A model generated the notes under the pieces. It was not told the origin of the DNA. It worked only from the letters and a program-made list of their open reading frames with translations, and searched no databases. From assembly GCF_013167455.1 (NCBI RefSeq), contig NZ_CP038328.1: a stretch of DNA of 64,000 nt. The stretch is one strand, 5' to 3'. The position numbers were made by a program, and so were the translations under genes. The DNA comes from Escherichia coli O157:H7 (GTDB lineage: Bacteria; Pseudomonadota; Gammaproteobacteria; Enterobacterales; Enterobacteriaceae). Positions 11,025 to 40,414 of this stretch are shown here, piece by piece (the first letter of the stretch is position 1; each line of letters starts with the position of its first letter).

Positions 11025-13883
11025 TTAACCCTCCGCTCCGGTGATAACAGCAATTACCTGAATGTAGGGTTCTTTTTCAGTCGTCATGGTGTCCTCAATC
11101 CATTCGATATAGCTGTCAAAATTGTGTTCGATTTCGCGTTGTCTCTGCTCTTTACGGCTCTGCTTGACTGACAATTGCTGTTTGTTATCGGCAAAATCCA
11201 GCTCAAGTTGGCTCAACTGCCGCCCACGCAAAACGTCCAGCTTTTGCAGATGCTCATTCAGTTGCTGGTTAATGTGCGTTTCAAACGCATTCCGATCATG
11301 GATGAATACCTCCCGGGCATGAGCAATAGCCGCTTCCAGTAAATCCTGCTGGCGTTGGTGATTACGATCTTTACCGCCGCTGTTAGTCAGCTTGTTACTC
11401 AACTGCGGATGACGTTGTAAAAACTCAGCGAAAGGCTGACTGCCGATTAGCGATTCACGGTTAAAGCTCACCACTATCCACGGGTTCACCATCGGATGTG
11501 ATTTACGGTTCGGGAATAACCCGGAAAGAATGAAGTGATCTTCATCGGGTTCAAGCAGGTATGGCAGCCGGATAACCGGAGCCTGATGACGACCAAAAGC
11601 CGAAGAGATTTTATCGTCCAGCCACTGCACTACCGGGTTGATTTGCCAGAGATACTGCACATCGGGCCAGGCATGTTGCTCACCGCGAGCGCGCGCAATC
11701 GCGTCGGTGATGACGGTTTTATCCTGACTTAAATAGAGCTGCCAGTTCTCCGGGGCAATTTCAGGCGGTAGCTGGTTGAAGCGGCGGCGTAACTCCTCCG
11801 GTGCCACCAGCGACAAGGTATTATCAGGCAAGGTTTCATACTGGATAGTTTGACCACTGGCTTTCAGGTAACCCAATGCTCTTTCGCAGTACGCCTGTTC
11901 GCTGGCAAACAAGCTGGTGTCTGTTTCGGTGACCATTGAGGCATCGCTGGAAACCGCACTGCATATTTCGCCAAACAGATCGTGTTCGGCGCTTTCCGAG
12001 ACGTTGCTGTTCAGCAGTTGATCAAACAGGCTGGCACCATCATCCTGCATCATGAACTCTGCAACCTGCTCTTCTTCCTCTTCCTGGGTAAATTTGCCGG
12101 TAAACTCCGAACTGTCCCCAATGTTCTTCTGCGCCTGTTCGTCTTTGTTGATCAACACTTCCAGTACGCGCATATCGCCATTGATCTGTGGTTCGCTGGC
12201 CTCGGTAAGCAGATAGCGGATTTGGGGCTGATGTTTTTGCCCATAGCGGTCAATACGCCCGTTACGTTGCTGGAATACCATCAACGACCACGGAATATCA
12301 AAGTGAATCATTTTGTGGCTAAGGTGATGCAGGTTGATCCCTTCAGATGCCACATCCGAACAAACCAGAAGACGCAACGGCGACTGCGTTTTACCAAAGG
12401 CTTCTACGGTTTCCATCAATACCGTATCGCCCTGATCGCCGCGCAGCGTGGCGATCTGGTCATCTTTCAATTTCAGATCCGCTCGCAGTTGCTGTTCGAG
12501 GAACTCCAGCGTTTTAATACTTTCGGTGAAGATCACCAGGCGATCTTCCGTGTTATTGGCTTTCCAGGCGAGGTCTTTTCGGATGGTGTCGAGCAGCAAC
12601 TGGTATTTGCTAAACTGGCTGGCATCAATGTTATTCAGCGCCAACAGCAATGACTCCAGTTCGTTGATCTGGCTCTGGCTATTATGATCTTTACGGCTCT
12701 CAAGACGCTTCAGACGATTCGCCACGACGCTGGCACACGCCATCGGGCTGGAAAATAGCGCTTTTTCGAGGGTTATCTTGAACAGACGACCTTTGTTAGA
12801 CTGGGCCTGTTCATCGTCATCATCACGGAACTGGCTCTCAACCAGACGACGGTATGCTTCTTCTTCGGCACCGGATGCCAGGCGAGTCAATTTGACAATA
12901 TTGCGCTCGGGGAACTCGCCGGACATCTGATCTTTCACGTCTTTTTTGAAGCGACGGACAACCAGATTTTTATCGGCAAAATCGGCGTATTCATACTCTT
13001 TCGGGTTGGCGATCGCCGTCGGGTCAAGCATGTTCATCAGGCTGGCAAAACTTTCAGCCTTACCATCATGCGGTGTTGCTGAAAGCATAATCAGCGTATC
13101 GCTGCGCCCGGCGAGCAGTTTTGCCAGTTTACTGCGTAACGAACTGGTTCCACGTTCTGCGACGTTATGGGCCTCATCAATGACAATAATATCCCACCAG
13201 GCATTTTCCAGATGGTGACGATATTCAATGTCTTGTTTCAGCGTATCGATGGAGATAATGGTCTTGTCAAAATAGTGGAACGGGTTGTGGTTGGTTGGGA
13301 TGCGGTTACGCACCTTTTGTAAACCAGCAGAATCCAGGCGGGTCAATGGGATCGCAAAACGGCTCCAGAACTCCTTCTGGAATTGTGTCAGCATCGATTT
13401 AACCGCCAGAACCAGAATACGTTTTCCGCGCCCACGACGGATCAGTTCCGAAACCAGAATACCGGCTTCCAGCGTTTTACCCAGACCAACAGCGTCGGCA
13501 ATGAGTATCCGCTGACGCGGTTGTGCCAGCGCCATCCGCGTAGGATCGAGCTGAAACGGCATGGAATCCATCGCCGCCAGATGACCAAAATGGACTTTAC
13601 TGTCTGTCGGTACGCGTTGGCGTAACTGACTTTCAATATACAACTGTGCCGCTTGATAATTGGCGGATTCATCTTCCACCAAATGCGTTTTTGCGGGATC
13701 CAGGATCTCTACTTTTTGTTCCAGTTTGGTCAGAAATAACCCTTCTTTACCGCGCACAAGCTCTGAAATACCATCGCAGGTCAGCAAATACCCACCATCA
13801 CCACTGTCATCCGCCCGGCGAATACGCCATTCGGCATCACGAATAACCACCCGCATACCAGGTGCATAATTTTGCTTATTCAT
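11025..13883 (-). CDS. SNF2-family helicase (952 aa), candidate DrmD-like
   Basis: Track ORF. Motif I DAVGLGKT, motif II IVIDEAHN (DEAH), motif III LSATP, C-terminal helicase motifs DVASEGINL and QQRNGRIDRYGQ. Confidence 0.8.
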   Translation of the reverse strand: MNKQNYAPGMRVVIRDAEWRIRRADDSGDGGYLLTCDGISELVRGKEGLFLTKLEQKVEILDPAKTHLVEDESANYQAAQLYIESQLRQRVPTDSKVHFGHLAAMDSMPFQLDPTRMALAQPRQRILIADAVGLGKTLEAGILVSELIRRGRGKRILVLAVKSMLTQFQKEFWSRFAIPLTRLDSAGLQKVRNRIPTNHNPFHYFDKTIISIDTLKQDIEYRHHLENAWWDIIVIDEAHNVAERGTSSLRSKLAKLLAGRSDTLIMLSATPHDGKAESFASLMNMLDPTAIANPKEYEYADFADKNLVVRRFKKDVKDQMSGEFPERNIVKLTRLASGAEEEAYRRLVESQFRDDDDEQAQSNKGRLFKITLEKALFSSPMACASVVANRLKRLESRKDHNSQSQINELESLLLALNNIDASQFSKYQLLLDTIRKDLAWKANNTEDRLVIFTESIKTLEFLEQQLRADLKLKDDQIATLRGDQGDTVLMETVEAFGKTQSPLRLLVCSDVASEGINLHHLSHKMIHFDIPWSLMVFQQRNGRIDRYGQKHQPQIRYLLTEASEPQINGDMRVLEVLINKDEQAQKNIGDSSEFTGKFTQEEEEEQVAEFMMQDDGASLFDQLLNSNVSESAEHDLFGEICSAVSSDASMVTETDTSLFASEQAYCERALGYLKASGQTIQYETLPDNTLSLVAPEELRRRFNQLPPEIAPENWQLYLSQDKTVITDAIARARGEQHAWPDVQYLWQINPVVQWLDDKISSAFGRHQAPVIRLPYLLEPDEDHFILSGLFPNRKSHPMVNPWIVVSFNRESLIGSQPFAEFLQRHPQLSNKLTNSGGKDRNHQRQQDLLEAAIAHAREVFIHDRNAFETHINQQLNEHLQKLDVLRGRQLSQLELDFADNKQQLSVKQSRKEQRQREIEHNFDSYIEWIEDTMTTEKEPYIQVIAVITGAEG

Positions 13884-30144: not shown

Positions 30145-30343
30145 AATGGTCTTCCTTCCATTGGTATCTCGTGAGTATACAAGCAATATCGAATCGGCAA
30201 ATATACTCATTAGTATACTCACAAGCCTGTTGATGTGGGTTGGTTCAGGTTGACTTCAGTTGAGGAGAAAAGCTGGAAAAGCCTTGCGTGGCGCGGATTT
30301 CAGGCATAAAAAAAGACCTCAGTTGAGGTCTATTTACATACTT

Positions 30344-30369
30344 TTGGTGCCGAAGGCCGGACTCGAACC
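30344..30369. repeat. 26-bp direct repeat of the leuX 3-prime end (att-type repeat, island junction)
   Basis: TTGGTGCCGAAGGCCGGACTCGAACC is identical to 40414-40439, which lies inside the tRNA gene; flanks diverge on both sides. Confidence 0.8.
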
Positions 30370-30859: not shown

Positions 30860-31324
30860 CTACTTTCTCAGCTTGTCCCACCGAACCGCAGATACAATAC
30901 CCCAGTTGCCGCTAGGATTAGGCCTACGCCATTTTGCTGTCTCCATGCTACGAAGATACTCAAGAGCTTCAGAAAACGTGCCAAACCGCTTCTGAGCCGT
31001 TTTATCACCTACGCCAAACGAGCCATCGCGAGTGCTTGCCAGCCCGGGATGAAAACACGAGCCATCAGCTGCATAAGGAACCAGTAATTCCGGGTCACTA
31101 TCTTCAGATGAATCAGACACCAATAGTCGCCACGGCTCAACACTCAGAGCATTAGCCAGCACCTCAATCGCATCCAAAGACGCATTAGAGCCACCGCGTT
31201 CAATGCGGCTCATATAGCTACGAGCAAAACCACACCGATCGGCAAAGGCTTCTTGGCTCATTCCGGTGGCAATGCGCAACTCTTTTACTCGTTGTCCAAA
31301 CAGTTTTCTCAGGGTCATTTTCAT
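30860..31324 (-). CDS. XRE-family helix-turn-helix transcriptional regulator (154 aa)
   Basis: Track ORF; N-terminal HTH LRIATGMSQEAFADRCGFARSYMSRIERG. Confidence 0.7.
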   Translation of the reverse strand: MKMTLRKLFGQRVKELRIATGMSQEAFADRCGFARSYMSRIERGGSNASLDAIEVLANALSVEPWRLLVSDSSEDSDPELLVPYAADGSCFHPGLASTRDGSFGVGDKTAQKRFGTFSEALEYLRSMETAKWRRPNPSGNWGIVSAVRWDKLRK

Positions 31325-31440
31325 GACCTGAATTTGCGCAGATGTCCACTAAAGAGCCACGCTCCAATAGTGACATTTTGAATCAATGGTCTATGATGCG
31401 ATAACTGACACCGCTGGGGTGGATTCTGAGGGATAACAAC

Positions 31441-32214
31441 ATGTCAAAAACACGGCTTAGTAAGCCCGGTTTTTCAGCCAAGTCTGTGCTGACCATTATG
31501 TTAATCGCTGCGTCATCTGCATCTTATGCAGCAGAAAGCATCGATCAACTGGCGACGCGCATCGGTATGGATCACTTCCGGGAAGCGATCAAAAAGGGTG
31601 AACGCAGCGCCTTCAAAACGCTGCCGGCAAAAGGCTATAAAAACGGTCTTACCGGGCTGTTAATCAAAACTAACACTTACGTTAACCCCGAATACAGCTT
31701 TGCTGATTGCGATACGGACACCGTTATTATCTCGGTGCAAGAACACAAAACGCTTCCCGGTTGCCGTATATCTTTAAAGCTAGCGACAAAAGACGCAGAT
31801 GGCAGTTATCACGACAATGGAATTCGCGTTGAATACGGTATTGCCATCGGCTCCAAAAAGTTTATCGCTAACAATTCAGCGTGGGCGCAACATGCCATCA
31901 GCGGTGATAAAGTGTTGGAAGGCGCTCTCCACCCGGATAAAACGAATAACAATAAAGATCAAATGAATAACAATAAAGATCAAATGTGCATGGGTATGGC
32001 TCAATTTACCGCAAACGTAACCGAAGGCCGTAACAGTGGGATGACGAAAAGAGAATATTATCAGCGACTTGATAACATGAACGGTAAGGCCGACGTCACC
32101 CAGCAGATGATAACGCTCTATAAGACTTTTGTTGACTACGTATATGAACATCCAAAGCAAGACGCAAAGATTTCAGGGACGTATATTTATACTAACTGTA
32201 TGAACAACTTCTAG
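31441..32214 (+). CDS. Secreted or periplasmic protein of unknown function (257 aa) with internal NNNKDQM tandem duplication
   Basis: Track ORF; Sec-type signal peptide (hydrophobic core LTIMLIAASSASYA then AES); divergent from the XRE regulator. Confidence 0.6.
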   Translation: MSKTRLSKPGFSAKSVLTIMLIAASSASYAAESIDQLATRIGMDHFREAIKKGERSAFKTLPAKGYKNGLTGLLIKTNTYVNPEYSFADCDTDTVIISVQEHKTLPGCRISLKLATKDADGSYHDNGIRVEYGIAIGSKKFIANNSAWAQHAISGDKVLEGALHPDKTNNNKDQMNNNKDQMCMGMAQFTANVTEGRNSGMTKREYYQRLDNMNGKADVTQQMITLYKTFVDYVYEHPKQDAKISGTYIYTNCMNNF

Positions 32215-32365
32215 AAACGTAGGTGCCTGAACATGATAGAACTCAGCTGCCAGCATAGAGTGGAAAGCGGAGGCTTACCATCGTATATTCATCGCGTTAT
32301 CTTTCCGTAACTATAATCTGTCTCAGTTGATCTAGTGCCTTTCAGGGCTGAACTAAGGAATAAAG

Positions 32366-33682
32366 ATGAATGACGGTGTTATGCTAGATTCTGACGTTAT
32401 TGCTGGTCTTGAGTGGTTAGCATCAACTCAAGAGAACAAACAACACTTTTACCAGCGCTTAGCAAAAGCACAGCAATTTTACATAGCTACAACCCAAAAA
32501 GCTGCCAATTTCGGGAAACAGTTTGACCCAGAATGGTATGGTTCCGACGTGGTTGCTGGTTATTTCGCACAAGCAAAATCGCTTATCGATAATAGAAGGT
32601 CTTACGAAGTTACTAATGCTTCAAATATAATACCATGGGTTAAACAATTAGGAGTGTGTGCTAAATCGCTCGATAGAATTACTGGCGCTAGAGATCGCGC
32701 AATCAGAATGCTTAAGAATACAACAGTATTACCAGACACAGCCTTATTAGAGTTGGTTCTTGCTGGAAACTATGCATCAGAAGGTTATGAAGTTGAGTTC
32801 ATTCCAGAACAAAAAGGGATAGCAAAAACCCCGGAGTTTCGTTGCCGCCTTGGAGATGGCGATTATTTCTTTGTCGAATGCAAAAGGCTTCAGAAAGGTC
32901 CTTACGTAAAGCAGGAAATATTACAGCATCATATACGCTCACATCTTGCCGAACTTCATATCAAATCCAAAAAGATGAACGTATGGACTGATGTCACATA
33001 TTTATGTGAAGTTAAAGACGCGCCTGAAAACTATATCATTAGCCACTTAAAAAACTTTAAAGGTGTATTTTATGAATGGAATGATGATTATGGAAAAGGA
33101 ACGATTAGACCGGCCAACTTAAATCTTATCAGGGAAGATATCACTGAAAACGGCTCATTACTAGTCAACACTAAACTTGCTCGTCTTATCAAAGGCTCCC
33201 CTCTGGAAGATGAAAATTACCAAGTTGTTGCTATGGGACGACCAGATGAGCGCGACTCACGTTTCATAACCAAAGTTAAACTTGCTTCTTTGATAACATG
33301 GCGTTGTATCAATGAAAAATCTTTCGATGCACGTTCGCGACATGTAACAAAAACATTAGCAGAGATAGATAACCAGCTTTTGGATTATGGTCTAGGCGTA
33401 GGGCATATAGCTTTGGATGTAGATATTCAAAAGGATGTTGCCGATAAACGAAGGGAAAAAAACTATGCTGCCATAGTAAATTTTGAGCAAAAATCTAAAA
33501 TAGTCCGCCTGAATGTTCATTATCTCGTGCCACGCATAGATGAGAACTCTGCGTGGATGGTAGATGAAACTGCGGATGACTTTTTTACCCATGATCTGGT
33601 CAAATATGTTATCCCATTGACTAAAATATTCCCCGAGGCTGAGGTATTTGAGAATGACCAACCTGGCTGGCATCAAAATTAA
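32366..33682 (+). CDS. Hypothetical protein (438 aa), AT-rich; possible PD-(D/E)xK-type nuclease motif
   Basis: Track ORF with AAGGA ribosome-binding site; segment GDGDYFFVECKRL fits a D...ExK pattern. The assignment is weak. Confidence 0.5.
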   Translation: MNDGVMLDSDVIAGLEWLASTQENKQHFYQRLAKAQQFYIATTQKAANFGKQFDPEWYGSDVVAGYFAQAKSLIDNRRSYEVTNASNIIPWVKQLGVCAKSLDRITGARDRAIRMLKNTTVLPDTALLELVLAGNYASEGYEVEFIPEQKGIAKTPEFRCRLGDGDYFFVECKRLQKGPYVKQEILQHHIRSHLAELHIKSKKMNVWTDVTYLCEVKDAPENYIISHLKNFKGVFYEWNDDYGKGTIRPANLNLIREDITENGSLLVNTKLARLIKGSPLEDENYQVVAMGRPDERDSRFITKVKLASLITWRCINEKSFDARSRHVTKTLAEIDNQLLDYGLGVGHIALDVDIQKDVADKRREKNYAAIVNFEQKSKIVRLNVHYLVPRIDENSAWMVDETADDFFTHDLVKYVIPLTKIFPEAEVFENDQPGWHQN

Positions 33683-33880
33683 TTTATTTTTGATAGTATG
33701 AACGAGGGTAGCATTTCTATACAAATCAGTGTTCGGCTGATAGCGAGTTAAACAGTTTACTGAAATGTTCTCAGCAATTAGCTGTTGCCAGGACCTCAAA
33801 AATCCGATTCTGGCGGAAAGTGTGCTGTTTTACCAAGTATTGCTCGTATCTGCAAAGTGTTAGAGCATGTTTTAAGTATA

Positions 33881-34450
33881 TCAGTAACCCTTATTCAGTA
33901 ATGCAGCAAGCGTCGCTCTTGAAACACCGTATTCACGCGCCAATGCGCTAACACTAACCCCAGCGGCCCTTTTGTCTAAAATCGCTCCACGAGCTTCCGG
34001 TGCGATTTTAGCAGGCCTGCCCAATTTCCTGCCTTCAGCTTTTGCCCGTAACAGCCCCGCATTAGTCCGTTCAATCAGCAGGTCACGCTCCATCTCCGCA
34101 ACCGCTGCTAGCATCGACAACAGGAGCTTACCGGCAGCAGAGGTGAGATCAGTGGTGCCAAGCTGATGGACAATAACCTTGATGTTTCGGTCAGCCAACG
34201 TCCTGACAGTTTGCAGAACGTCAATTGCATCACGCCCGAGGCGGTCCAGCTTTGCAACTACCAACGTTTCCCCATCGCGGATTTTGCTGAGCATTTCAAA
34301 AAACGCTTTGCGTTGCACCGCAGGAACCTTTCCGCTGACTACATCAGAAAACCAAAAGTCGAACGTCCACCCAGCTTGTTCAAGTTCCATGCGCTGGTTC
34401 TCAGTATCCTGCTGGGATGTCGAAACACGCCCGTAGCCAAAAATAGCCAT
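33881..34450 (-). CDS. Serine recombinase (resolvase/invertase family, ~189 aa)
   Basis: Track ORF trimmed to MAIFGYGRVSTSQQ; catalytic Ser in the GYGRVS motif, VAKLDRLGRD, C-terminal HTH. Confidence 0.8.
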   Translation of the reverse strand: MAIFGYGRVSTSQQDTENQRMELEQAGWTFDFWFSDVVSGKVPAVQRKAFFEMLSKIRDGETLVVAKLDRLGRDAIDVLQTVRTLADRNIKVIVHQLGTTDLTSAAGKLLLSMLAAVAEMERDLLIERTNAGLLRAKAEGRKLGRPAKIAPEARGAILDKRAAGVSVSALAREYGVSRATLAALLNKGY

Positions 34451-34642: not shown

Positions 34643-35110
34643 ATGATTAAAGACGCGATTTTTTCACCGTGCGGTAAGTATCGCTACTCGTTATCACGAG
34701 TCTGGGACGAATCAAAACCGTATACCCTTTTCATAGGGCTAAACCCTTCATACGCCGATGCCGAGAAGGATGATCGCACCTTGAGCCGCTGCATATCGTT
34801 TGCCAAAAGCTGGGGCTACGGTGGCGTATACATGGCCAACCTGTTCGCATTCGTTCACACCCAGCGACATGAAATGATGAAAGCGTCTGATCCCATTGGC
34901 AAAGATAACGATAGCCACTTGATACGTCTTGTTAGCGGTGCCGGACTGGTTGTCGCCGCATGGGGAAATGAAGGAAGACACCTCAAACGCTCAACGACCG
35001 TCCGACAGCTATTGCCAGAGAGCACAATGTGCTTCGTCTTAAACGCTACAGGTGAGCCGAAGCACCCTTTGTATATGAAAAACGACAGTGTTCTCATACC
35101 TTTAGGTTAA
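34643..35110 (+). CDS. DUF1643-family protein (155 aa)
   Basis: Track ORF; FSPCGKYRYSLSRVWD and LNPSYADAEKDD blocks recalled as DUF1643 hallmarks; divergent from the serine recombinase. Confidence 0.6.
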   Translation: MIKDAIFSPCGKYRYSLSRVWDESKPYTLFIGLNPSYADAEKDDRTLSRCISFAKSWGYGGVYMANLFAFVHTQRHEMMKASDPIGKDNDSHLIRLVSGAGLVVAAWGNEGRHLKRSTTVRQLLPESTMCFVLNATGEPKHPLYMKNDSVLIPLG

Positions 35111-36113: not shown

Positions 36114-36446
36114 TTGAGAACCGTCGAAATACTGCAATACACCTTACGCAAAGGCAGCGGTGCCGCTTTTCACGCCATAATGCAGGAAATCAGTGTTCCC
36201 CTACACCAAAGCCACGGGATCGATGTTGTTTCGTTTGGCAACTCGCTTGATGACCTGGATTGCTACTACTTGATTCGCGCCTTTGACAGCGCTAAAAGCA
36301 TGACTGCGGTTCTCGATGCTTTTTACGCAAGCGCAGACTGGCGCAGCGGCCCACGCGAAGACATCATTGGCAGCATAGAGAACTGCATTAAAACAGTGAT
36401 TAGCCTACCATCAGAAAGCGTGAAAGGGCTGCGGATGCAATCGTAA
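36114..36446 (+). CDS. Small protein (110 aa), NIPSNAP-like / dimeric alpha-beta-barrel candidate
   Basis: Track ORF with TTG start and GGAG ribosome-binding site; pattern VEILQYTLRKGSGAAF...YYLIRAFDS resembles NIPSNAP-type proteins. Confidence 0.4.
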   Translation: MRTVEILQYTLRKGSGAAFHAIMQEISVPLHQSHGIDVVSFGNSLDDLDCYYLIRAFDSAKSMTAVLDAFYASADWRSGPREDIIGSIENCIKTVISLPSESVKGLRMQS

Positions 36447-36567: not shown

Positions 36568-36945
36568 ATGAATTTAGATGAAGAATTTTACGAATTACAA
36601 AAACTCTTTGCTCAGAAGGATCTACTGACTGAGAAAAGACGCTCTAGTGGCGGCGGATTCATGGAAATTCTCTTGGTGAAGAGACAGAACATGAAGATAA
36701 AAATATATCAAGAAAAAGGACATCAACTTCCCCATATTCATATTGACTATGGAAAACAAGCGCATGCTGCCAGTTATGCCATACAATCAGGAGACCGCAT
36801 AGAGGGAGATTTACCTAAGAAATATGATAGTGATGTTTCGAGTTGGTTGGGGAGAAATCGTGATAAAATTTTAGAAATCTGGAATGCACTACAAGCTGGC
36901 GCACCTTATGAACCACTAATCGCAGAATTGACTGGCGGAGTGTGA
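36568..36945 (+). CDS. DUF4160-like small protein (125 aa)
   Basis: Track ORF; PHIHIDYGKQ motif typical of the DUF4160 family as I recall it. Confidence 0.5.
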   Translation: MNLDEEFYELQKLFAQKDLLTEKRRSSGGGFMEILLVKRQNMKIKIYQEKGHQLPHIHIDYGKQAHAASYAIQSGDRIEGDLPKKYDSDVSSWLGRNRDKILEIWNALQAGAPYEPLIAELTGGV

Positions 36946-37127
36946 CTAACTAAATAATTTTCCCCTAAAAAAATTCGATGTAGGAAAATATATATAAGTA
37001 AGAATCATGAGTGTCCGCTCCTCGCTCAAGGCGGACTGTTAGACTTGATTGTATGCTGTCAGAGAAAACCGTCAGATCAATTCTGTGAACCGCCCCGGGT
37101 TTCCTGGAGAGTGTTTTATCTGTGAAC

Positions 37128-38018
37128 TCAGGCTGCCAGATCATCGTTTCCGATGGAAGCATAATAAGCTTTTTCTGCTTCTGCCGGAGGAGTATGGCCC
37201 AGCCTTCCCAGCAATCGTCGATTGTTATACCAGTCCACCCACGTTAGTGTGGCCAGTTCCACTTCTGCACGGTTTTTCCAGCTCTTACGGTGTATTACCT
37301 CCGCTTTGTAAAGACCATTGATGCTCTCAGCCATCGCGTTGTCATACGAGTCGCCTGTACTCCCTGTTGATGCCAGTAATCCGGCTTCTTTTAGTCGCTC
37401 CGTATAGGCCAGTGACACATACTGAGAGCCTTTATCGCTGTGATGGATGGTGCCAGACGGACGACGGGCCCACAACGCCTGCTCCAGCGCATCCAGCACG
37501 AATGTCGTTTCCATAGACGATGAGACCCGCCACCCCACGATGTATCCGGCAAACACATCAATGATAAACGCCACATAGACGAAGCCCTGCCATGTGCTGA
37601 CGTAAGTAAAATCAGCCACCCACAGCTGGTCAGGTCGTTCTGCCACGAACTGACGGTTTACGCGGTCGCCTGCGGCAACGGCTTTCCGGCTGATGGTCGT
37701 ACGGACCTTTTTACCCCGGAGAACACCGGCAAGTCCCATAACCGCCATGAGACGTGCCACTGTACATCTGGCCACCCTGATTCCTTCCCGTAACAACTGA
37801 CGCCAGACTTTACGCACACCGTACACCTGATGATTTTCATCGTATACGCGCTGTATCTCTCTCTTCAGCCAGTCGTCGTGCTGCGCACGGGCACTGCGTT
37901 TATCCGGATGATGTCGCTGTTGCTGACAATGGTAATACGTTGACGGGGCAATATGCAGTTCGCTGCATACCGGTCCGACCCCGTACTGCTCACGCAGCTT
38001 ATCCAGCAGTGGCATCAT
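37128..38018 (-). CDS. IS629-like transposase OrfB (DDE catalytic domain)
   Basis: Track ORF; DDE region ...WVADFTYV...[11 protein letters not shown]...[16 protein letters not shown]. Confidence 0.85.
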
Positions 38019-38341
38019 TTTTTCCAGAGGCGGTCGAACTCCGCCTTCGCAAAATAAGCGGAAGCCTGGCGAAGGATATCGTTACTGCGGCGCAGTTCAC
38101 GATTTTCACGTTCCAGCTCTTTCAGACGCTGACGTTCAGCGCTGGTGAGCCCACCATCACCGCCCCCGGTATCCCGCTCATGCTGGCGAACCCAGACACG
38201 CAGAGTCTCCGGCGTACAGCCAATCTTTGGGGCAATGGAACAAATTGCCGCCCACTGTGAGTCATATTCATCCTGACTTTCCAGAACCATACGAATCGCC
38301 CGCTGACGGACTTCGGGGGAAAAACGAGTATTTTTAGTCAT
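38015..38341 (-). CDS. IS629-like transposase OrfA (108 aa)
   Basis: Track [25 protein letters not shown]...; HTH plus leucine zipper, matching IS629 OrfA from memory. Confidence 0.85.
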
Positions 38342-38392
38342 CCTGTTTACCTCTTTCTCAGGGAGTTTAGTCTCCAGGATTTCCGGGGCGGT

Positions 38393-40366
38393 TCACTTTC
38401 TTCGCAGCGCATCTCTTACAGCATCCAGCCCATCAGGAATGTTGAATCTCGCTATCTCGGGCAAAGAAAAATCAATCTTTTCGACAACCTCAACCATGTG
38501 AACCGGTTTTAAATCTTTGCTGTATCGCACTTCAGTTTCTGTTTTGCCTCGCACATGCCCAAGTAGCTGCCCACGCAGTTCCGAACTAACACCCTTCTCT
38601 TTAAGCAAAGTTGAAACAGAATGCCGGAAAGAGTGGAAAGATTTGCTTCTGTCTCTTTCAAGTTTTAATCGACCCGCAAGCAATGATTCATTGAACCATG
38701 CGGAAACCGGCCTACCATAGCCTTTGGTTTTATGTGGTTTAAGCTCGGGAAAAAGACGGTCATACCCGGCAGCTTTCAACGCATCCACATACTCGATAAA
38801 ACCGAGTTCAATCAGCGTAGAATGAACCGGAATCTTGCGGCGGGAATTGGCGTTTTTTAGTTTCTTTCCGTTTTCGCTATCGCTTTCAAGGTTCAGGTAA
38901 TAAACGCCGTCATCTGCCAGAACATCGTCCAGCATTAACTGTGCAATCTCGTTAACCCTTGCCCCCGTCATCAAGCCCAACAACGGCGCCCAATAGTGAA
39001 ACGGGCAATATTGATGGAATCGCCCTTGCGCATTACGTTCAACAGTTCCAGCGACAAACCACGGTTGCGAAAAAATTGCCTTAATTTCATGCGGTTCAAA
39101 TATGTCAGTGTGATCCTGCTCTCGCTCACCTTTGTCATCGGGAGGGAAAAAGTTGTCGCATGGCGATTTCAGAAACTTACCATCATCAACAGCCCACTCC
39201 ATTGCACCATAAAGGCCGTTGATATACTTTTTGACAGACTCTTCTGTCATCAGTTTATCGCCACATTCTGCCGCTTTGGCGATTAACTCATCCAGCGTCT
39301 TAACCCCGTGCTTACCTTTCATCAAATTACGGTTAGCAGGAATTGTGCGCAACTTGCTCTCATAAGCCCGGAGGAAATCACGGTCGAAATCTTCCAACTG
39401 AATATCCCCCATCACTTCAATCATCAAATCGAAGTAATAGCGAATATCGCGGAGCGCCGCTTCTGATACCTTGCCCTTACGTCGATGTTTCAAATACTCT
39501 TCACGAAGCCATGACAAGTTTTCATTGTAATGTTTGCGGTGAACATATTCATTAGCGATAACAGGAGCGACAAGAGGCACGGCAGGGTGAATGCTAACTG
39601 CTGGTGGCGTGGTCTTAACCAGCCATGTAAGTCGAAGGCCTTCAGCATGAACTTTGCTAATCAACAGGCTATCAGCAGTTATATCTACGCCGGGTAAATC
39701 GAAGAACCAACCTCCACTTTGGTTATCACCACTAGTTCGAAATGCAGCCTCTCCTTCGGATACTCCAGCGCTCAACAGACAATCTAAAGTATGCCGGGGA
39801 TTGAAGGGGCGGAGATAACCATTTGCGAAGCTCTCGATACCCAGCTCAAACGCGCTATTGAGAATGATGACTTCTTTAGGTTGATCCTTTTCATCATCAG
39901 ACTGTTTTTCTCGTTTTGCACCCGGTTCCCGCTCTACTGCATTAAATTCATCAACATAGAAACCGAACTGACCAGTCGCCAGCCAGAATACCGGGAGGTT
40001 ACGATTAACCACCTCTCGAATCAATTGCGATATAGGCAACTCGATTGATTGAGCAAAGTTAGAAAGCGAGATCATACCCTCACCAGCAAGCAGTGGGGCG
40101 CAGTCACTTAAAGTTCGATAATCCAATTGTTCATACTCTTGTAAGGTCTGATACCAGACCGCCAACAGGAGCGCGGACTTCTGCTTTGCTTCATGAAGAT
40201 CGTGAGTGCCTGTTGAAGTGTGAATCTCACACTGTCCTGCGTATCGACGAAAACGTTGGGGAACGCTAATGCGGACAACATAAATGCCGCTGGTTCGACG
40301 ATAGAGTTTATATCGCTGAGACATCGCCTCGTATACCCTTTTGTAAGAGGGGCTACGCGATTTCAA
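38393..40366 (-). CDS. Tyrosine recombinase / integrase with long N-terminal extension (657 aa), next to leuX
   Basis: Track ORF; catalytic signature TGARVNEI...HSFRHSVSTLL...LLGH...VRYSKDL. The stop codon is supplied by the IS629 terminus. Confidence 0.75.
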   Translation of the reverse strand: MKSRSPSYKRVYEAMSQRYKLYRRTSGIYVVRISVPQRFRRYAGQCEIHTSTGTHDLHEAKQKSALLLAVWYQTLQEYEQLDYRTLSDCAPLLAGEGMISLSNFAQSIELPISQLIREVVNRNLPVFWLATGQFGFYVDEFNAVEREPGAKREKQSDDEKDQPKEVIILNSAFELGIESFANGYLRPFNPRHTLDCLLSAGVSEGEAAFRTSGDNQSGGWFFDLPGVDITADSLLISKVHAEGLRLTWLVKTTPPAVSIHPAVPLVAPVIANEYVHRKHYNENLSWLREEYLKHRRKGKVSEAALRDIRYYFDLMIEVMGDIQLEDFDRDFLRAYESKLRTIPANRNLMKGKHGVKTLDELIAKAAECGDKLMTEESVKKYINGLYGAMEWAVDDGKFLKSPCDNFFPPDDKGEREQDHTDIFEPHEIKAIFSQPWFVAGTVERNAQGRFHQYCPFHYWAPLLGLMTGARVNEIAQLMLDDVLADDGVYYLNLESDSENGKKLKNANSRRKIPVHSTLIELGFIEYVDALKAAGYDRLFPELKPHKTKGYGRPVSAWFNESLLAGRLKLERDRSKSFHSFRHSVSTLLKEKGVSSELRGQLLGHVRGKTETEVRYSKDLKPVHMVEVVEKIDFSLPEIARFNIPDGLDAVRDALRRK

Positions 40367-40414
40367 GCAAGATTATGAATTAAATTGTTTTAAAACAATA
40401 GTTTAGATGAGTCT

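Follow-up and report, generated by a model that had tools for sequence, protein, structure and literature searches.

A candidate anti-phage nuclease of the PD-(D/E)xK type in a cargo slot of the Escherichia coli O157:H7 island SpLE5

We analysed three adjacent genes in a stretch of 64,000 nucleotides (hereafter the window) from Escherichia coli O157:H7 (contig NZ_CP038328.1). In the record of the O157:H7 strain Sakai they lie inside the annotated 'phage-like element SpLE5': ECs_5252 encodes a regulator of the XRE family, ECs_5251 an exported protein of 257 residues, and ECs_5250 a protein of 438 residues. Sequence conservation and structure prediction show the last of these, ECs5250, to be a member of a large unnamed family with a predicted restriction-endonuclease-type PD-(D/E)xK fold and an intact, invariant catalytic set. 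The explanation that we favour, with moderate confidence, is that SpLE5 is an island with swappable cargo, that ECs5250 would act there as a single-protein anti-phage nuclease, and that the regulator and the exported protein are parts of the island backbone.

The starting point was a description of the region made from the DNA letters (the sequence-only reading), much of which holds. It had the XRE gene diverging from a gene pair, and our open reading frame (ORF) check of the window returned all three ORFs at exactly the same coordinates (Table 1). Its helix-turn-helix (HTH) regulator has Pfam matches, its signal-peptide protein has the expected N-terminal layout on inspection, and the NNNKDQM duplication that it pointed out goes back to a perfect 21-bp tandem repeat. 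It took the island to be freshly integrated; the repeats at leuX and the absence of the island from O157 lineage II agree that the event was recent. Finally, it could name no family, which remains so for the 257- and 438-residue proteins after comparison with Pfam, NCBIfam, PADLOC and the PDB sequences. In the literature we found no molecular function ascribed to ECs_5250, ECs_5251 or ECs_5252.

A predicted PD-(D/E)xK nuclease core in ECs5250

A word-indexed search with ECs5250 gave 58 clusters, all full-length and all called 'hypothetical', extending to 37% identity in alphaproteobacteria. An exhaustive profile search returned 678 representative clusters at 50% identity, nearly all of them stand-alone proteins of 430–495 residues. 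Members occur in alphaproteobacteria of soil and plants and in Bacteroidota, as well as on prophages and plasmids. In 95 divergent full-length members, E129, D/E157 and E171 are each conserved at 100%, K173 at 99% and E184 at 99–100%; all five are invariant in the family alignments A1 and A3, and P156 is invariant as well in A1, the closer set. The sequence-only reading had seen a weak D...ExK-like motif here. The motif is real, but 'weak' was the wrong word for residues conserved to this degree, and the predicted active site is strong and selectively maintained.

The AlphaFold2 model of the protein has a predicted local distance difference test (pLDDT) score of 91.6 and a predicted template modelling (pTM) score of 0.89. 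It places E129 in the helix 124–138, residue 157 (directly after P156) at the start of the strand 158–161, the triplet E171-C-K173 in the strand 168–175, and E184 in the helix 179–202. The core elements follow one another in the order alpha-beta-beta-beta-alpha-beta, which is the canonical PD-(D/E)xK arrangement, so that the modelled protein has both the core fold and the placement of catalytic residues by which the superfamily is recognised. The fold matches many Type II enzymes. Structure prediction and homology searches, which the sequence-only reading had proposed as checks, thus describe a PD-(D/E)xK fold within an unnamed family, and the earlier suggestion of a nuclease is supported in the sense of a nuclease-type protein, through the invariant residues and the modelled fold.

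The core is flanked by an N-terminal helical domain (residues ~1–120) and a C-terminal region (~216–438), the latter with the near-invariant residues W312, Q337, H347 and E401. A Foldseek search of AFDB50 gave 281 matches, many of them full-length (TM 0.8–0.98), whose automatic names are 'Uncharacterized', 'Restriction endonuclease', 'NERD', 'Mrr' and 'Transposase'. Other top structural matches, to the central domain of acetyl-CoA carboxylase, probably stem from the C-terminal alpha/beta region and are uninformative. ECs5250 has no signal peptide and is cytoplasmic, and the family is always solitary.

Searches of the family databases gave little. ECs5250 has no match in Pfam even at E≤10; among 51 relatives, Mrr_cat (PF04471) is found in none at E≤0.001 and, below threshold, in seven at E≤0.1. 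NCBIfam gave no match, PADLOC-DB v2 gave 0 families at E≤0.1, and searches of the PDB sequences with single proteins and with profiles from A1 and A3 gave nothing meaningful. In PHROGs the protein matches phrog_37220 (1.7e-14), a family of unknown function. The 'transposase' label on some relatives was considered and rejected: the Rhizobium homologue so labelled has no NCBIfam match, and we found neither Pfam support for the label nor flanking repeats.

An exchangeable cassette in a family of islands

SpLE5 is one of a family of small integrative islands in Enterobacterales, among which we compared those of Klebsiella, E. coli 88COLEC, E. coli ATCC 25922, Yersinia and others. Their fixed backbone has a DUF6538-type tyrosine integrase (633–650 residues) beside a tRNA gene or lysS, and also a resolvase; the opposite end is formed by an XRE gene and, diverging from it, the gene of an exported protein of ~250 residues. 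Interchangeable cargo slots sit between these backbone genes. No paper describing the island family was found, and the literature query 'DUF6538' likewise gave none.

Homology breakpoints were determined by blastn of the window against five sister islands and by alignment of the junctions. Relative to the Klebsiella and 88COLEC islands, homology over the XRE and 257-residue genes stops at 32213, in the stop codon of the latter, and resumes at 33899–33912, at the 3' end of the resolvase gene (33895–33912 over the five islands). Relative to ATCC 25922, which has the small leuX island in its common E. coli version, homology stops earlier, at 31384. The cassette is thus inserted between the stop codons of the 257-residue gene and the resolvase gene. 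The breakpoint at the first of these stop codons, together with the separate contexts of the homologues described below, identifies ECs_5250 as an independent cassette, with the XRE and 257-residue genes as island backbone. The guanine-plus-cytosine (GC) content is 39.6% in ECs_5250, described earlier as AT-rich, 44.4% in ECs_5251 and 50–52% in the XRE and resolvase genes. The breaks in the junction alignments are sharp, and a search for repeats bounding the cassette, such as integron- or transposon-like ends, revealed only chance-level short ones.

Sister islands hold other genes at the same place: an AIPR/AbiU gene in 88COLEC (PADLOC 1.7e-29), a PDC-S60-like gene in ATCC 25922 (PADLOC 5.8e-27), and a gene for 379 residues of no known family in Klebsiella. 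In Yersinia and other islands the slot is empty and the resolvase gene follows the partner gene at 11–72 bp. A second slot of the island family carries AbiLi/AbiLii (7e-100, 6e-24). Defence genes are therefore found in both slots, which makes the cargo slots of the family defence slots. By their position, the occupants of 379, 571, 281 and 338 residues (Table 1) are further defence candidates.

Genomic contexts of the homologues

Outside SpLE5, we inspected 11 independent contexts of the 438-residue family by hand, and in about 10 of the 11 the homologue is located as cargo of a defence island or mobile element (a hand count, not a genome-wide statistic). In Pectobacterium the homologue directly follows a Gabija-like pair of an OLD-TOPRIM ATPase and UvrD, in Acidisoma it lies in an integrase island with HEPN_AbiV, AAA_13, HSDR_N and a DUF4011 helicase, and another homologue is near an Abi_C gene and a giant SIR2 gene. 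On a Rhizobium plasmid it stands directly after dndBCDE and the gene of a DGQHR protein, and on a Xanthomonas plasmid it is divergent from the gene of a DNA methyltransferase of 973 residues. Among the plasmid matches, 43 of 52 are on conjugative plasmids.

Prophages provide further examples. At the edge of one prophage family (K. aerogenes, E. coli and seven IMG/VR contigs), the homologue is immediately downstream of the integrase gene; the integrases there are 95–97% identical, while the nuclease alleles are only 54–61% identical to the O157 protein. In an Enterobacter lambdoid prophage it is inserted on the opposite strand, with the P gene on one side and the ninR region on the other. A distant relative (25% identity, from the PHROG 37220 branch) sits in a P2-like phage, flanked by the genes for tail-fibre assembly and the tail sheath, which is the position of the Z/fun accessory locus in P2.

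A 257-residue gene is beside the homologue in 0 of the 11 contexts. Two of them (Pectobacterium and the Abi_C/SIR2 locus) have an HTH gene within ~8 kb, though never adjacent, and no conserved neighbour, antitoxin-like genes included, was seen among the inspected contexts. An adjacent methyltransferase gene is missing from SpLE5 and from most homologue loci, the exceptions being Xanthomonas and the Dnd-linked Rhizobium locus.

The regulator, the control region and the exported protein

The HTH domain of ECs5252 covers residues 9–63 (Pfam HTH_31 2.9e-13, HTH_3 7.1e-11), and residues ~80–154, a part of ~75 residues, gave no family match. Its best PADLOC match is 'Control_protein' (7e-18), and CapH is matched too (5e-10); both are generic for HTH_3/HTH_31 domains. 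The gene occupies an identical position in all sister islands, and ~555 E. coli genomes, in which its neighbours differ, carry it at ~86% nucleotide identity. The XRE gene with ~60 bp of upstream sequence is also on ~70 E. coli plasmid records, and a DUF6998 or AbiJ-NTD4 gene flanks the XRE end outside the sister islands, also on a plasmid; on this evidence the XRE segment looks like a mobile or recombinogenic junction in its own right. A type II toxin-antitoxin system was considered for the locus and rejected: the XRE gene points the other way and another gene stands between it and the nuclease gene, the arrangement is not conserved, and an XRE gene is never adjacent to the homologues.

In the alignment of five islands, the divergent control region has a ~60-bp block beside the XRE start that is conserved across all sister islands. 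The motif CCAATAGTGACATTT at 31364–31378 occurs once in each of them, and in ATCC 25922 it lies upstream of the alternative partner gene. In the promoter scan, the best sigma-70-like promoter for the 257-residue gene is at 31370–31397 (GTGACA-16-TATGAT, a 10/12 match), and the motif overlaps its -35 element. The arrangement suggests that ECs5252 would repress the divergent promoter through this region and so control ECs5251. Multiple operator copies were not found in the spacer, and because it offers a single motif copy and one weak 9-nt palindrome, the operator is something that we infer.

By inspection, ECs5251 begins with a basic n-region (K3, R5, K8, K14) and a hydrophobic core, VLTIMLIAASSA, followed by S-Y-A|A-E. 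Small residues at -3/-1, in MSKTRLSKPGFSAKSVLTIMLIAASSASYA|AE, are those of a typical Sec signal, and there is no lipobox. The signal layout and four invariant cysteines are kept in 24 homologues (alignment A2), from which the mature protein would be periplasmic and disulphide-bonded. The NNNKDQM duplication is confined to the O157 allele, and every other homologue is of ~250 residues with a single copy; in the structure model the duplication falls in a disordered, low-confidence linker (pLDDT <50). The family numbers 63 clusters, essentially in Enterobacterales and none annotated. Its members are always divergent from an XRE gene for 154/155 residues across a constant 116-bp spacer, always in islands terminating in a resolvase and a DUF6538-type integrase of 633–650 residues, and mostly without a 438-residue gene. 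In A2 the N-domain is well conserved and is combined with two sharply different C-terminal helical domains, and some members (150–164 residues) are without the C-domain.

ECs5251 has no match in Pfam, NCBIfam, PADLOC (0 families at E≤0.1) or the PDB sequences, and a profile search with A2 reached no annotated relative; in PHROGs, the C-terminus weakly matches phrog_2315, a family of unknown function. Expression of the gene is RpoS-dependent (PMC2907692). In ATCC 25922 the partner of the XRE gene is a membrane protein of 164 residues in place of the 257-residue protein, to which it has no similarity. This replacement hints at a role of ECs5251 at the level of the envelope.

The island and its neighbourhood

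SpLE5 is delimited by two exact copies of a 26-mer, TTGGTGCCGAAGGCCGGACTCGAACC, one within leuX and the other at the distal end, and the interval between them agrees with the Sakai annotation. The island (ECs5242–5252) is present in O157 lineages I and I/II and not in lineage II (PMC1890555), and its acquisition probably postdates the separation from O55:H7 (PMC1890555; PMC3681947). Judged by blastn offsets, the window lacks 166 bp of the Sakai sequence at ~38397, between IS629 (37088–38397) and the SpLE5 integrase gene, so the strain sequenced is one other than Sakai. The resolvase gene has 82–92% nucleotide identity to the sister islands (blastn). The DUF1643 and NIPSNAP genes appear backbone-like, since they are common to ATCC 25922, where DUF1643 is frameshifted.

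A review (PMC12707154) counts leuX among the defence hotspots of E. coli, as #37; the primary paper on E. coli hotspots contains no mention of leuX in its main text. The adjoining island SpLE6 has Druantia III, Zorya II and an HNH endonuclease within ~4–18 kb. Its Druantia type III is represented by DruE3 and DruH3 (E = 0), and a complete Zorya type II set lies at 23992–27465 (+), although the Sakai record does not name it so. Directly outside the distal repeat of SpLE5 is the short integrase ORF ECs_5253, which is much shorter than the integrases of 388–424 residues at related loci and is probably truncated. A truncated ECs_5253 would fit SpLE6 being an older island that was displaced from leuX when SpLE5 integrated.

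Table 1. Features of the window and of the sister loci. Positions are those of the window unless a locus (L) is given.
Feature	Position	Strand	Remarks
XRE regulator gene, ECs_5252	30860-31324	-	154 aa; 100% identical to O157:H7 Sakai
Divergent control region	31325-31440		116 bp; alignment of five islands
Exported-protein gene, ECs_5251	31441-32214	+	257 aa; 100% identical to O157:H7 Sakai
Tandem duplication	31945-31986	+	21 bp, AATAACAATAAAGATCAAATG x2, giving NNNKDQM-NNNKDQM; TRF and direct read
Cargo cassette	32215-33880		~1.7 kb, 39.7% GC; single gene (438 aa), preceded by 151 bp and followed by ~200 bp
Nuclease-type gene, ECs_5250	32366-33682	+	438 aa; 100% identical to O157:H7 Sakai
Predicted PD-(D/E)xK core codons	32726-33010	+	five conserved catalytic-set residues
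Codon of E129	32750-32752	+
Codon of E157	32834-32836	+	D in most homologues
Codon of E171	32876-32878	+
Codon of K173	32882-32884	+
Codon of E184	32915-32917	+
Resolvase gene	33881-34450	-	Sakai annotation; Pfam Resolvase in sister islands
DUF1643 gene	34643-35110	+	SpLE5; no PADLOC match
NIPSNAP gene	36114-36446	+	SpLE5; no PADLOC match
125-aa ORF	36568-36945	+	SpLE5; no PADLOC match
Distal att-type direct repeat of SpLE5	30344-30369		26-bp copy of the leuX 3' end; exact 26-mer
Partner repeat of SpLE5	40414-40439		same exact 26-mer, within tRNA-Leu(CAA)
tRNA-Leu(CAA), leuX	40415-40499		ARAGORN
952-aa SNF2 helicase, DrmD/BrxH-like	11025-13883	-	PADLOC 1.4e-99; SpLE6
ZorA2	23992-25644	+	E 1e-302; Sakai: membrane protein
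ZorB2	25651-26358	+	2e-104; Sakai: hypothetical
ZorE2 HNH	26362-27465	+	4e-176; Sakai: HNH endonuclease
HNH/type-IV-like restriction endonuclease	28006-28857	+	PADLOC HNH 5.9e-21, mREase_IV 1.8e-08
Short integrase ORF, ECs_5253	29317-30222	-	~276-301 aa; directly outside the distal repeat
Klebsiella 379-aa slot occupant	L006 8977-10116	-	no NCBIfam, no PADLOC match
338-aa cargo gene	L006 13414-14430	+	no NCBIfam, no PADLOC match
ATCC 25922 281-aa gene	L015 10261-11106	-	PDC-S60-like N-terminus; no NCBIfam match
Yersinia 571-aa cargo gene	L033 8823-10538	-	blank precomputed Pfam entry
DUF6998/AbiJ-NTD4 flanking gene	L017 7953-8831	-	sister-island/plasmid locus
DUF6998/AbiJ-NTD4 flanking gene	L016 5951-6823	-	sister-island/plasmid locus
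DUF6998/AbiJ-NTD4 flanking gene	L015 7139-7963	-	sister-island/plasmid locus

Discussion

The predicted active site, the solitary habit of the family and its placement in defence slots and defence islands together point to ECs5250 as a probable single-protein nuclease against phages or other mobile DNA. In such a scheme, the N-terminal helical domain and the C-terminal alpha/beta region, with Q337, H347 and E401, would sense a feature of the invading DNA or a signal of infection, and on recognition would license the central nuclease, which would then attack the invading DNA with no partner methyltransferase. Since the gene travels without a methyltransferase, the enzyme may either prefer modified or non-self DNA in the manner of Type IV enzymes, or stay inactive until infection. 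As a rough estimate, we lean somewhat towards a restrained, infection-triggered nuclease and give the modification-dependent mode the slightly smaller share. ECs5252, for its part, would be the island's own repressor, acting at the 116-bp divergent region to control ECs5251.

Several points weigh against this picture. The family has no PADLOC, NCBIfam or Pfam model, and for this reason its defence role is argued from guilt by association; the association is itself drawn from about a dozen hand-inspected contexts and not from a genome-wide statistic. The Enterobacter kobei homologue lies among ordinary chromosomal genes, the sole context of this kind. In the N- and C-terminal parts of ECs5250 we recognised no fold of a known modification reader or sensor, and the operator and repressor roles proposed for ECs5252 rest on conservation only.

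Four other explanations were weighed. The sequence-only reading saw the locus as a module of a secreted factor and an enzyme under the regulator, that is, ECs5252 would control the 257- and 438-residue proteins jointly for virulence, toxin delivery or defence. The two genes are indeed co-oriented at a distance of 151 bp, with no terminator detected in the gap, and both are unannotated. However, they were never found together outside the O157 island in the contexts that were read, the homology breakpoint falls exactly between them, their GC content differs, and the 438-residue protein comes from an always solitary family and lacks a signal peptide. There is, then, no conserved pair, the regulator is part of the island backbone, and the comparative data largely refute such a module, which we consider very improbable. 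Because no terminator was detected, ECs5250 may be read through from the 257-residue promoter in O157, as an accident of insertion rather than a designed operon; promoter-like sequences are also present within the cassette. Of the three roles suggested earlier, virulence, defence or toxin, defence is the best supported for ECs_5250, whereas a secreted virulence factor or a toxin system found no support. A role in host colonisation, for example as a nuclease on bacterial or host nucleic acids in the bovine gut, deserves separate comment. Reportedly, the signature-tagged mutagenesis (STM) screen of Dziva et al. in 2004 had a calf-colonisation hit here in O157:H7, which we know as it is cited by two later papers. 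O55:H7 and O157 lineage II, whose ecology is different, also lack the gene (PMC1890555, PMC3681947). Yet the phenotype, as relayed in this way, is that of one insertion in a pooled screen, the protein is cytoplasmic, and the wide range of the family described above, from soil and plant bacteria to prophages and plasmids, fits poorly with a task specific to the bovine gut. Moreover, a defence gene could itself aid survival in a gut rich in phages. Colonisation as the primary role seems to us unlikely, if the least so of the four.

The constant company of mobile elements raises the question of whether ECs5250 serves the element itself, as a transposase-like or homing nuclease, in recombination or excision, or as an addiction toxin that stabilises the island. 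PD-(D/E)xK nucleases do include TnsA and recombination nucleases, the gene is always on or beside mobile elements, and some public records call its relatives 'transposase'. That label, however, has no backing from NCBIfam or Pfam, the cassette is surrounded by neither inverted repeats nor target duplications, there is no conserved adjacent antitoxin-like gene, and the homologues occupy accessory positions in unrelated elements that already have integrases or recombinases of their own; we therefore rate this explanation as rather improbable. Slightly less credit still is given to ECs5250 as the restriction half of a classical or phosphorothioate-dependent restriction-modification system with its modification genes elsewhere in the genome. 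The relatives beside a large DNA methyltransferase gene or directly after dndBCDE and the DGQHR protein gene would suit it, as would the match of the fold to many Type II enzymes, but most contexts, SpLE5 included, have no adjacent modification gene, transfer of a restriction gene by cassette without protection would be lethal, and proximity to Dnd or methyltransferase genes is equally expected from the clustering of defence islands.

A solitary defence nuclease, as we prefer to read ECs5250, has counterparts among known systems. Mrr/NERD and Type IV enzymes are alike in being solitary PD-(D/E)xK nucleases with no cognate methyltransferase and in their place in a defence island beside the immigration-control/leuX region of E. 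coli; distant relatives of ECs5250 are automatically annotated as Mrr, NERD or restriction endonuclease, and weak matches to Mrr_cat occur. ECs5250 differs, however, in that it has no Pfam Mrr_cat or NERD match, that no modification-reader domain was recognised in it, and that its nuclease core sits mid-protein, with an unassigned domain on either side. Also among the closest known systems are Shedu (SduA) and Hachiman HamA, defence nucleases of the PD-(D/E)xK type that stand alone or serve as effectors, and the minimal PD-(D/E)xK nucleases of the CdiA-CT (EC869, Burkholderia 1026b type) and AF1548-like kinds. The latter are domains of ~120–180 residues delivered as toxins with immunity proteins, whereas ECs5250 has no delivery domain, no immunity gene and ~320 extra residues.

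The other parts of the island can be placed in the same way. ECs5252 resembles the XRE regulators known as C-proteins (controllers) in its HTH match and in its divergence from the probable target gene, but it has the additional C-terminal part of ~75 residues, and its linkage is with an exported protein instead of the nuclease. With the cargo hotspots of P2 and P4 and the leuX hotspot #37, SpLE5 shares conserved flanking genes between which unrelated defence genes are swapped as alleles, although its backbone of DUF6538 integrase, resolvase, and XRE gene with exported protein resembles that of neither P4 nor P2.

Thus, on comparative grounds, the ECs5250 family is a credible new anti-phage candidate of a familiar kind. 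If this is true, it adds a large nameless family to the catalogue of bacterial immune nucleases, and the candidate is a single, easily testable 1.3-kb gene of the best-studied E. coli pathogen. Interest is raised further by how large this unnamed family is and by the chance to reinterpret a published calf-colonisation hit of O157:H7, as it is relayed by later papers. Furthermore, with its fixed backbone and swappable slots, the island family offers a practical 'bait' for further defence genes, of which the 379-residue occupant in Klebsiella, the 281-residue gene of ATCC 25922 and the 571-residue gene of Yersinia are examples.

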